Origin: a virus
Lineage: Duplodnaviria > Heunggongvirae > Uroviricota > Caudoviricetes
Virus record (IMG/VR): IMGVR_UViG_2778261344_000007
Coordinates: 1 to 4,692 of that record
Length of the DNA: 4,692 bases
Strand: one strand, 5' to 3'
A program made the position numbers and the translations under genes. The notes below the pieces were generated by a model that had not been told where the DNA came from, did not search any database, and saw only the letters and a program-made list of their open reading frames with translations. Positions 2,935-4,616 of the stretch are shown piece after piece. Each line of letters starts with the position of its first letter. Position 1 is the first letter of the stretch.

Positions 2935-2955
2935 TGTAACGCTCGCAGCGTTACA
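2935..2955. repeat. palindrome copy 3: TGTAACGC-TCGCA-GCGTTACA (non-coding, ends 2 nt before the ydaU Shine-Dalgarno)
   Basis: Perfect 8-bp arms read directly; located in the 77-bp ydaT-ydaU spacer. Confidence 0.85.
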
Positions 2956-2964
2956 TTTAACTGA

Positions 2965-2986
2965 TACCGAACAAAACAGTTCGGTA
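2965..2986 (-). other. hairpin TACCGAAC-AAAACA-GTTCGGTA in the ydaT-ydaU spacer (8-bp stem, 6-nt loop, no U-tract)
   Basis: Perfect 8-bp inverted repeat read directly; lies between the ydaT stop (3000) and palindrome copy 3. Confidence 0.4.
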
Positions 2987-2999
2987 CGATTAATTTCAA

Positions 3000-3422
3000 T
3001 CAATGCACTACGACAGAATCGCTAGGAGAACCGCCGCCGCTGAAATGTGCTTTACGGTAAACGGCCTGGACTGCATCATCATGCGCATCAATTGCCGTAC
3101 TCAGTGCATCCTGTGCCGCCAGTAATGCACGGCGTTCCAGGGTATCGAAGATGCAGAGTCGGTGACGCAGCTCGCGAGGAAGAATTGCCAGAACCGCAGG
3201 GATCAGTTTCTGAATTTTTTCCCTTTGCGCATTCGTTTCACCTTTCAACCAACGATGATAGATATTCTGCTGATTGTTCCAGTCCTTGCCTGGTACCAGG
3301 GGCAATTCGCCGCCCCCCTGGCGCAGATATTCTTCAGTAATTGCGTTAGCGACCCACGCCTGCCCTTTTTCGGCTGCCAGGGCTAACAACACTGATTCGA
3401 TGTGCTCATGCTTGATTTTCAT
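3000..3422 (-). CDS. ydaT: YdaT-family protein (CII-like regulator of Rac-type prophages; historically annotated as a toxin)
   Basis: 140-aa ORF beginning MKIKHEHIESV..., which I recognise from memory as YdaT of the E. coli Rac prophage (unverified). ATG 3420-3422 overlaps the ydaS TGA 3419-3421 (ATGA coupling); GGGAG lies 7-8 nt upstream. Confidence 0.88.
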   Translation of the reverse strand: MKIKHEHIESVLLALAAEKGQAWVANAITEEYLRQGGGELPLVPGKDWNNQQNIYHRWLKGETNAQREKIQKLIPAVLAILPRELRHRLCIFDTLERRALLAAQDALSTAIDAHDDAVQAVYRKAHFSGGGSPSDSVVVH

Positions 3423-3429
3423 GAATCAA
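3412..3429. promoter_or_regulatory. perfect inverted repeat TTGATT-N6-AATCAA centred on the ydaS stop / ydaT start overlap
   Basis: TTGATT 3412-3417, ttcatg 3418-3423, AATCAA 3424-3429, read directly. A weaker relative (ACGATT-N6-AATCAA, 2986-3003) overlaps the ydaT stop. Confidence 0.4.
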
Positions 3430-3673
3430 CTCCCATCAGCTTTTTCGTAGTAGTTTTATTTCTGCCAATAGTTAAAATTGCATCGGCAGAAAATAATCCG
3501 TTTGATGCATGAGCGATTTTTTCAGCGTAATTTGTTTCGCCGGTATATTCTGTGCGAGGCAATTTACCGTTATCCATCCATTTGTAGATTGCTCTTTGGC
3601 TGACACCACAAACGTCGGCCACAACAGAAACGCGAACAGTTTTGATTACATCTTCAAGTGTTTTCTGGTTCAT
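3419..3673 (-). CDS. ydaS: Cro-like small HTH regulator (YdaS-like), 84 aa
   Basis: ORF-track frame 3419..3745; start placed at ATG 3671-3673 (MNQKTLEDV...) because GAGGGTGA lies 5 nt upstream, whereas the ATG at 3745 has no RBS and sits inside the repressor promoter. HTH-like segment VADVCGVSQRAIYKWMDNGKLP. First gene of the operon, divergent from the repressor. Symbol by synteny. Confidence 0.75.
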   Translation of the reverse strand: MNQKTLEDVIKTVRVSVVADVCGVSQRAIYKWMDNGKLPRTEYTGETNYAEKIAHASNGLFSADAILTIGRNKTTTKKLMGVDS

Positions 3674-3697
3674 ATCACCCTCACAATGTGAACTTTG

Positions 3698-3732
3698 AGT
3701 ACATGCTATAACAGAACTGACAGTACATTCAA
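3698..3732 (-). promoter_or_regulatory. candidate early-right promoter (PR-like) for the ydaS operon: -35 TTGAAT (plus 3727-3732), 16-bp spacer, extended -10 TGtTATAGC (plus 3705-3713)
   Basis: Read on the minus strand; would give a leader of about 25 nt containing the ydaS RBS. The -10 is imperfect (ends in C). Confidence 0.4.
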
Positions 3733-3753
3733 GAGCGAATATCATTGAACTTA
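3717..3753 (+). promoter_or_regulatory. candidate repressor-maintenance promoter (PRM-like): -35 CTGACA 3717-3722, 17-bp spacer, -10 TATCAT 3740-3745; predicted start at or beside the racR ATG (leaderless mRNA)
   Basis: Hexamers and spacing read directly; the -10 ends 7 nt before the ATG at 3753 and no RBS is present. Lambda cI mRNA from PRM is leaderless (established), which gives a precedent. Confidence 0.45.
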
Positions 3754-4172
3754 TGGTTCATGAAGATAAAGCGCGTAAAGAGTTCGCCAGTAGGCTTGCG
3801 CTAGCCTGTGAAAACGCTGGTTATGAACAACATGGAAGGCAGGCAGAAATTGCCCGTCGAATGAAATTAACACCAAAAGCGGTTAGCAAATGGTTTAATG
3901 GTGAAACAATTCCTCGCCGAGAGAAATTAAGGGAATTAGCAACACTCATTGGAACAACACCAACCTATCTTTTGGGAGAGGATACAGAAGAAAGTGGACA
4001 GATACGTTTCTATCAGGAGTTAAATCCAAGACAAAAAATCATCATTGACCTTCTGGACGAGCTCCCTGACAGTGAGACAGATGAACTTTTAAAAACTCTT
4101 GAGGAGAAAAAACAGAAGTACAATGCAATTTACGAAGAGTTAGCACGAAAGAAAAAACAAAAAGCCTCTTAA
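3753..4172 (+). CDS. racR: CI-like prophage repressor, XRE-family HTH with a charged helical C-terminus (RacR-like), 139 aa
   Basis: ORF with HTH segment QAEIARRMKLTPKAVSKWFNGETIPRREKLRELATLIG, divergent from the cro-like gene. No Shine-Dalgarno precedes the ATG at 3753, but a good -10 ends 7 nt upstream. Symbol is positional (racR-ydaS-ydaT-ydaU-ydaV order). My memory of K-12 RacR length differs, so this may be a variant repressor. Confidence 0.8.
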   Translation: MVHEDKARKEFASRLALACENAGYEQHGRQAEIARRMKLTPKAVSKWFNGETIPRREKLRELATLIGTTPTYLLGEDTEESGQIRFYQELNPRQKIIIDLLDELPDSETDELLKTLEEKKQKYNAIYEELARKKKQKAS

Positions 4173-4247: not shown

Positions 4248-4291
4248 ATGTACTTAAAGTACTTTACAATGATGAACACAAAGTACATTAT
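4248..4291 (+). promoter_or_regulatory. operator/promoter cluster downstream of the repressor (OL/PL-like): inverted site 4248-4262 containing palindrome GTACTTAAAGTAC, direct site GAACACAAAGTACAT 4274-4288, candidate -35 TTTACA 4263-4268 and -10 CATTAT 4286-4291
   Basis: Motif copies read directly. Hexamers are moderate matches with a 17-bp spacer, oriented toward the small ORFs at 4464 onward. Confidence 0.4.
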
Positions 4292-4463
4292 ATACCTACC
4301 AACCCACCCCGCCCCACAGAACGCCGGGCAATACTTCGAGTTACCAGGCAGTGGTCAGGGGTTAAGTAGCCAGCCCGAGGCGTATGAACATGACGGCGGG
4401 ATTCAAATTTTGCAGTGCAGCAGTTAGTTCCGCCACCCGGCGTTAAGGGGAAATGAGGTCAAC

Positions 4464-4616
4464 ATGGATACTATCGATCTTGGCAACAACGAATCTCTGG
4501 TATGTGGCGTGTTTCCCAATCAGGACGGCACATTCACCGCCATGACGTATACCAAAAGCAAATCGTTTAAAACCGAAGCTGGCGCGCATCGCTGGTTAGC
4601 AAGAAACTCCGACTAA
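4464..4616 (+). CDS. small early-left protein, 50 aa (MDTIDLGNNESLVCGVFPNQDGTFTAMTYTKSKSFKTEAGAHRWLARNSD)
   Basis: ATG 4464-4466 with GAGG (4455-4458) 5 nt upstream; below the ORF-track size cutoff. Position corresponds to the small ydaG/ydaF genes next to racR in Rac, but I cannot say which. Confidence 0.6.
   Translation: MDTIDLGNNESLVCGVFPNQDGTFTAMTYTKSKSFKTEAGAHRWLARNSD

Follow-up and report, generated by a model that had tools for sequence, protein, structure and literature searches.

Gene Content of the Window and Anatomy of the ydaT–ydaU Spacer

The window, by which we mean the whole 4,692-nucleotide stretch of DNA that was analyzed, was assigned by sequence comparison to a Rac-like lambdoid prophage, of which it forms the immunity and replication region. 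It is 100% identical in E. coli O157:H7 (EDL933 and others) and in strain E2863, and the phage records vB_EcoS-666R9, -673R7, and -613R10 carry it at 99.4% identity. The original prediction for this locus had placed a CII-like gene, ydaT, ahead of the replication genes ydaU and ydaV, and this order is correct (Table 1). The cro-like gene is 72 to 75% identical at the DNA level to cro of HK022/HK75. We rejected a small open reading frame at 2904–2999 (31 aa, minus strand) as a gene because the variants described below carry 1-nt indels near its end.

Table 1 Features of the window referred to in the text; offsets such as +160 are counted from the ydaU ATG
Feature	Position	Strand	Remarks
ydaV, DnaC-like	1381–2127	minus	
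ydaU-like replication initiator gene	2134–2922	minus	262 aa
Intragenic cluster, +367 to +403	2514–2556 in total		palindrome 2536–2556 plus half-site 2514–2520; AT-rich linker-coding part of ydaU
Intragenic site, +148/+160	2743–2774 in total		palindrome 2743–2763 plus direct half-site GCGTTAC 2768–2774, 12 bp away
ydaU Shine-Dalgarno, AGGTGA	2929–2934	minus	6 nt before ATG (2922–2920); read from the sequence
Upstream palindrome (copy 3), putative initiator operator	2935–2955		TGTAACGC-N5-GCGTTACA; ends 1 nt before the ydaU Shine-Dalgarno
Hairpin	2965–2986	minus (sense mRNA)	5'-UACCGAAC UGUUUU GUUCGGUA-3'; no U-tract
YdaT-box-like inverted repeat, weak candidate	2986–3003		sense TTGATT-gaaatt-AATCGT; 2 mismatches to consensus
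ydaT, CII-like activator, PF06254	3000–3422	minus	
ydaS, cro-like	equivalent of 3419–3673	minus	annotation in matching genome
Repressor gene	3753–4172	plus	

The spacer between ydaT and ydaU (2923–2999) is 77 bp long and contains two stems. The first is the hairpin that the original prediction had described, and we confirmed its perfect 8-bp stem and 6-nt loop (plus-strand letters TACCGAAC-AAAACA-GTTCGGTA). It begins 14 nt past the ydaT stop codon and, folded as sense RNA, has an energy of –12.3 kcal/mol (z = –6.0), with none of 200 shuffles equally stable. The second is a palindrome, TGTAACGCTCGCAGCGTTACA, which follows the hairpin and precedes the ydaU ribosome-binding site in the order that had been described, although it lies just outside the 2956–2999 range to which that description was assigned. 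Each stem has 8 to 9 bp, and 9 unpaired nt separate them. Folding of the minus-strand transcript, the check that had been proposed, gave –27.4 kcal/mol for 96 nt (z = –3.27), and 0 of 200 shuffles did as well. The two spacer stems are thus real and non-random.

Neither stem is an intrinsic terminator of the sense transcript, as had been stated: the RNA continues with AUCAGUUAAAU after the hairpin and with AGGUGAAAAC after the palindrome, so that neither is followed by a U-tract, and a terminator scan of the minus strand flagged nothing. On the plus strand, CGATTAATTT directly follows the hairpin and a lenient terminator rule is passed; terminator-like hits in the region occur at the number expected by chance (2 versus 1.1). 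A second plus-strand terminator-like hairpin at 2895–2918 (CTTCGAGC..GTTTGAAG and then CCATTTGTTT) is antisense to the first ydaU codons. We found no sigma-70-like promoter on either strand of the spacer, and no match to Rfam appeared when the entire window was scanned with an E-value limit of 1 (Rfam may contain no put model).

YdaT is the functional equivalent of CII, and its footprinted box is TTGATT-N6-AATCAA (PMC9986795; PMC11879457); the papers on YdaT mention neither ydaU nor a hairpin or terminator. One perfect YdaT box lies at 3412–3429, over the ydaT start codon. The weaker repeat at 2986–3003 overlaps the ydaT stop codon, abuts the hairpin, and is about 410 bp from the perfect box. 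It is the same in most spacer variants, with A changed to G in one group, and its occurrence is at chance level (about 0.4 such hits expected per window; two or more in 12 of 200 shuffles). Given where it lies, it may be a second YdaT site, or a loop anchor, that brackets ydaT. In a viral contig discussed below (L279), a homologous TTGATTggggAATCA stands ahead of the hairpin core.

Elsewhere in the immunity region, AAGTACAT and its reverse complement cluster at 3697–3728 and 4248–4288, on both sides of the repressor gene (9 hits at one mismatch or fewer versus 3 expected), and these clusters are probably the OR and OL operators. HK022 carries ATGTACTTTTAGTAC directly after cro (L200, 2646–2660), which we take to be the extra HK022 operator O_FR. 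A long G+C-rich untranslated leader extends on the plus strand over 4285–4470, between the presumed PL region and the first small open reading frame at 4464; its folding did not exceed that of shuffles (z = –1.04).

The Palindrome Recurs Within the Initiator Gene

The sequence GTAACGC-N5-GCGTTAC occurs three times in the window, where 0.01 occurrences are expected. Relative to the ydaU ATG, the copies lie at –32, +160, and +367, with extra half-sites at +148 and +403, so that the three site clusters are spaced about 200 bp apart (about 190–260 bp). Around the +367 cluster (2480–2620) the GC content is 35 to 45%, compared with 50 to 65% over most of 2140–2440 in the 3' half of the gene. As a consequence of the palindromes that lie within ydaU, the protein contains the peptide motif GNA..(S/G)VTK at two places. 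In phage TL-2011b the copy at +367 is read in a different frame from that in the window, and therefore the constraint is on the DNA and not on the protein.

We compared 23 loci, consisting of the window, TL-2011b, BUCT554, ST11-OXA245phi3.2, and 19 loci from contigs sampled at one genome per species (mostly E. coli/Shigella, Rouxiella, Erwinia, Mixta, Serratia, Yersinia, Pantoea, and Pectobacterium). Nearly all of them carry the motif inside the initiator gene, at +148/160 and at +357 to +412. The upstream palindrome is present at –32 to –44 of the ATG in 13 of the 23, namely, the window and 12 others, two of which are near-identical E. coli/Shigella loci. Because it is absent from the remaining 10, the upstream copy is dispensable for replication. 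Intragenic copies also occur in phages that lack ydaT, and thus YdaT is not the binder.

The association holds in the reverse direction. Scanning viral contigs with the DNA pattern alone recovered 100 new loci, 82 of which encode a homologue of the YdaU N-terminal domain with the palindrome inside that coding stretch (identity 31–100%, median 57%). More than 100 prophages share the motif at matching gene positions, with initiator N-domains that are only 31 to 75% identical. One viral contig, L279 (IMGVR_UViG_2731957942_000002), carries within positions 1–700 three tandem repeats of the leader plus the opening 193 bp of the initiator gene, joined at palindrome copies; the arrangement would reflect recombination of the –32 palindrome with the one at +160 or else be an assembly artefact. 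Extra open reading frames are also inserted in this contig between ydaT and the block of hairpin and operator.

What is conserved in the palindrome is its sequence. The arms are the same everywhere, while the central 5 nt vary freely. Among 34 sites, the few departures are single-arm mismatches; compensatory changes number zero (in none of the seven arm pairs had both sides changed), and pairing equals that of the shuffled control. A search for the covariation expected of a structured RNA thus found none over these 34 sites. The extended consensus, GGTAACGCAAAnnGTAACGC-N5-GCGTTACA, contains three half-sites at 12-bp phasing, the extra direct half-sites being unpaired, a pattern that a protein-binding array accounts for and an RNA stem does not. 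Because its sequence is conserved without covariation, recurs inside the initiator gene, and tracks one N-domain family across genera, we conclude that the palindrome behaves as a protein-binding DNA site. As at phage initiator sites of the lambda O/ori type, multiple copies lie in and near the initiator gene, the site type tracks the N-domain, and an AT-rich region adjoins. A literature search combining the motif with origin terms returned unrelated primer sequences only.

The Site Type Follows the N-Terminal Domain of YdaU

YdaU of the window is a mosaic in which an N-domain family of its own kind is joined to the C-terminal domain of K-12 YdaU. Residues 1–125 share about 67% identity with the initiators carried by TL-2011b, Enterobacter phage BUCT554, and Klebsiella phage ST11-OXA245phi3.2, and in TL-2011b the same N-domain family is fused to a DnaT-like C-domain. 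Members of the family are labelled "hypothetical protein" in RefSeq, and the N-domain has no match in Pfam. An AlphaFold model of the domain, with a mean pLDDT of 73, arranges its elements in a winged-helix-like order, four helices and then a beta-hairpin. Searching the PDB for its fold returned nothing significant (best E-value 0.5); winged-helix proteins are numerous among the non-significant matches, no more than a hint. No paper on a replication function of YdaU was found in the literature.

The K-12 Rac prophage provides a natural domain swap. It shares ydaT, the C-domain of YdaU, and ydaV with the window; its N-domain is of the DUF1376 type and its spacer has 12 bp. K-12 Rac lacks the palindrome and carries repeats of its own, five of TTGAACATCTGC together with inverted repeats of ATGTTCAAACA.

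The Hairpin Is a Lineage-Specific Feature, Probably of the Sense Transcript

The distribution of the hairpin differs from that of the palindrome. It is limited to the ydaT-linked lineage of E. coli/Shigella and absent from distant relatives, and a scan anchored on its 15-mers recovered it in the ydaT–ydaU context only, the other hits being unrelated chance matches. A locus with 84% N-domain identity (L252) lacks it, its spacer consisting of the stop codon, CAGAAGGC, and the palindrome, and the type represented by L279 and L301 has only a 5-bp core (CCGGA/UUCGG, –4.7 kcal/mol). A hairpin upstream of the operator is not a general trait of the relatives, among which structures at this place occur only in the Serratia and Yersinia lineages. 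Two Yersinia loci (L057, L061) carry a short hairpin and U-run, GGAGAGCAUUUCACGCUCUUUUUAAUAUU, about 25 to 50 nt upstream of the operator palindrome, at the place of the E. coli hairpin. This element looks like a real intrinsic terminator; if it is, those initiator genes need a promoter of their own near the operator.

Within the E. coli/Shigella lineage, we recovered at least 18 distinct spacer sequences, which define five stem haplotypes with the sense 5' arm UACCGAAC, UGCCGGAC, UGCCGGAU, UGCUGGAU, or UGCCGGAG. Variation within the spacer is greatest in the 5' arm. The spacer is carried by 687 E. coli genomes. The 3' arm is invariant, also in a scan anchored on the palindrome and thus unbiased as to the hairpin. 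The arms UGCCGGAC, UGCCGGAU, and UGCUGGAU retain G·U pairs, and all four transitions observed (A2G, C4U, A6G, and C8U) retain a wobble pair (G·U or U·G) on the sense RNA, where the energies among haplotypes are –12.3, –11.8, –9.8, and –7.6 kcal/mol. The same changes place A·C mismatches in the plus-strand version, whose energy drops from –10.9 to –3.9 and –1.6 kcal/mol. Since 8 of 16 possible positions retain a wobble, four of four transitions correspond to a hypergeometric P of about 0.04, in a small sample in which two of the changes always co-occur. Because this wobble pattern is strand-specific, it favors a structure in the sense RNA; a terminator on the plus strand and a symmetric site in the DNA are both less favored.

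Combining the two stems into one RNA device, as the original prediction had done, is not supported. Evidence for RNA structure, in the form of wobble-preserving changes, exists for the hairpin alone, and the palindrome is conserved by sequence. The hairpin would be a lineage-specific structure of the sense ydaS–ydaT–ydaU mRNA, located just past the footprint of a ribosome terminating ydaT. Any function that we infer for it is most likely modest, such as a barrier that shields the upstream message from 3' exonucleases, or a pause; it is not a terminator.

A serious rival to a functional hairpin is that it is a neutral leftover beside the operator, for example, an eroded terminator or the remnant of a module junction, and we give this possibility substantial weight without favoring it. 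It would explain why the hairpin is found in one lineage only, is missing from L252, and is reduced to 5 bp in L279 and L301, and it agrees with the high variability of the 5' arm; the hairpin and U-run at the equivalent place in Yersinia also suggest an ancestral terminator. The constancy of the 3' arm fits as well, since this arm overlaps a degenerate upstream direct half-site (cGGTAtCaG versus GGTAACGC), and such an overlap could produce the asymmetry between the arms without any selection on RNA. Against neutrality are the retention of a wobble pair by each of the four transitions and a sense-strand stability that remains within –7.6 to –12.3 kcal/mol.

The Spacer as a Putative Initiator Operator

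Taken as a whole, the data are probably best explained by two unrelated elements that share the spacer, a palindrome that acts at the level of DNA and a separate hairpin. The palindrome always accompanies this initiator type, and by analogy it is most likely the binding site of that protein, serving as an upstream operator, an outlying origin site, or both. We name YdaU as the putative binder on account of this co-occurrence and of the analogy with lambda O. The upstream palindrome would then be a double-stranded DNA recognition site for the YdaU-like initiator, contacted through its N-terminal domain, and would form the upstream member of a set of three clusters, the other two of which (+160 and +367) lie inside ydaU. 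The +367 cluster, which is AT-rich and codes for the linker, is the probable origin core, like lambda ori within gene O. Pairing of the palindrome as RNA would be a by-product.

The proposal that the spacer is a control point is plausible on this basis. Initiator bound to the upstream copy would most likely damp read-through from PR into ydaU and ydaV, a roadblock type of autoregulation; any repression would need to be of this type because ydaU is read from the upstream PR operon and the spacer has no promoter-like site. The upstream copy may also anchor the origin complex from outside. Both the initiator as the binder and the division of labor between roadblock and origin are roles that we infer from these patterns. 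A more elaborate version, which we regard as unlikely in its entirety, is that an uncharacterized initiator family draws the 5' half of its own gene into a loop or a wrap by means of the dispersed palindromic three-cluster set, that negative feedback on ydaU–ydaV transcription is thereby coupled to origin firing, and that among the E. coli members this switch is connected to the CII-like lysogeny decision through the adjacent hairpin and the YdaT-box-like repeat.

Should this assignment to the initiator be correct, it supplies the recognition sequence, and also the probable origin, of a lambdoid replication module that is widespread and occurs in prophages of E. coli O157:H7 and Shigella and in many phages of Enterobacterales, and GTAACGC-N5-GCGTTAC at fixed gene positions would provide a simple DNA signature for this module. 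It also illustrates that what appears to be a structured RNA spacer can arise as the by-product of a DNA operator.

Alternative Readings of the Palindrome and the Hairpin

The palindromes could instead be bound by another protein, either a host factor or a phage regulator such as a silencer of the replication module. The spacing of about 200 bp between sites is seen more typically with looping repressors than with tandem iterons, and the assignment to the initiator rests on analogy, for an N-domain whose fold lacks a confident identification. We nevertheless consider another binder rather improbable for the following reasons: No gene accompanies the motif consistently other than the N-domain coding sequence in which it lies. 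What flanks that sequence varies, both upstream (ydaT, a small open reading frame, a methyltransferase, or other genes) and downstream (a YdaU-type or a DnaT-like C-domain). Finally, the motif persists across host genera and is absent where another N-domain has been swapped in, K-12 being the example.

We regard as very unlikely the reading from which the analysis started, in which the two stems work jointly as RNA elements of the PR transcript, whether they form an RNase III site, signal Rho action or antitermination (nut- or put-like), or gate the translation of ydaU. The good folding of the 96-nt transcript is in its favor, as are the palindrome stem that stops 1 nt short of the Shine-Dalgarno sequence and the variation of the hairpin, which is compatible with a sense-RNA structure. 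The neighboring cro-like gene moreover resembles cro of HK022, a phage that uses a two-stem put RNA (PMC9378689). This reading is opposed by the palindrome itself, which lacks covariation and is fixed in sequence at three positions and across genera, and by relatives, both close and distant, in which the palindrome is present without the hairpin.

Each of its specific forms also encounters a difficulty. RNase III sites need about 20 bp of double-stranded RNA (about two helical turns), and stems of 8 to 9 bp each are far short of this length. A lambda-type nut site is not supported, with no boxA nearby and no N-like gene: matches to boxA (YGCUCUUUA) occur at chance and none is near the spacer, and the PL-side genes of the matching prophage include no N-like open reading frame. 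Resemblance to put is likewise lacking, as the stems of the spacer are short, perfect, and separated by 9 nt, and one is a sequence-conserved DNA motif, whereas put RNA is about 70 to 74 nt long with two irregular adjoining stem-loops (PMC9378689). The putL and putR sequences are similar to each other. Compared with the cro–cII gap of HK022, which contains the putR region, the spacer shares a single 9-mer, GTACCGAAC. Lastly, occlusion of the ydaU start is not a conserved feature, because in relatives the palindrome lies 10 to 15 nt further from the Shine-Dalgarno sequence. RNase III processing, antitermination, and translational gating, mechanisms offered by the original prediction, thus found no support in the comparison.

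Least credible of all is that the hairpin terminates a plus-strand antisense RNA, similar to OOP, that begins within or close to the 5' end of ydaU and overlaps the ydaU ribosome-binding site: the CGATTAATTT run, the passed terminator scan, and the equivalent position of lambda oop speak for it, but most haplotypes have lost the plus-strand stem, with between two and four A·C mismatches in it, the regional number of terminator-like hits is at chance, no plus-strand promoter-like site was found in 2700–2965, and a –35/–10 pair picked by eye (TTGTAA-17-TTAACT) is not conserved in relatives.

Comparison With Known Systems

In its position, the spacer corresponds to known regulatory gaps. HK022 put and lambda nut lie, as structured RNAs, where the PR operon has its first non-coding gap, and the immunity region here is HK022-like; nut requires boxA and the N protein and put requires its irregular stems, neither of which is present here. 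The lambda cII–O gap, in which the oop antisense RNA sits, occupies the same place in the early-right operon, from a CII-type activator to the initiator gene. Unlike that gap, the ydaT–ydaU spacer has no conserved antisense hairpin or promoter.

For the palindrome as a putative initiator operator, the Rep operators of iteron plasmids (pSC101 RepA, F RepE, and R6K pi) offer a close parallel. Those operators overlap the rep promoter, and here the spacer has no promoter-like site; as here, a palindromic recognition sequence lies just upstream of the initiator gene, apart from the copies at the origin.

A further close likeness is to lambda O and its origin. The iterons of lambda ori lie inside gene O, and the N-terminal domain of the O protein binds them. 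The mechanism class, with sites inside the initiator gene, has been known since lambda, whereas the dispersed layout is undescribed and the N-domain uncharacterized. In lambda, four tandem iterons are about 23 bp apart; here, three clusters are about 190 to 260 bp apart, unlike known lambdoid origins, and each contains direct half-sites at 12-bp phasing, with one cluster placed upstream of the start codon. The YdaU N-domain has no Pfam match and is not PF04492-like, in contrast to lambda O. The two systems share the following features: several sites of about 19 to 21 bp with an internal dyad lie inside the initiator gene, in the part that codes for the linker and beside an AT-rich stretch, and in both the type of site changes when the N-terminal domain is swapped while the C-terminal domain that faces the helicase loader stays the same.
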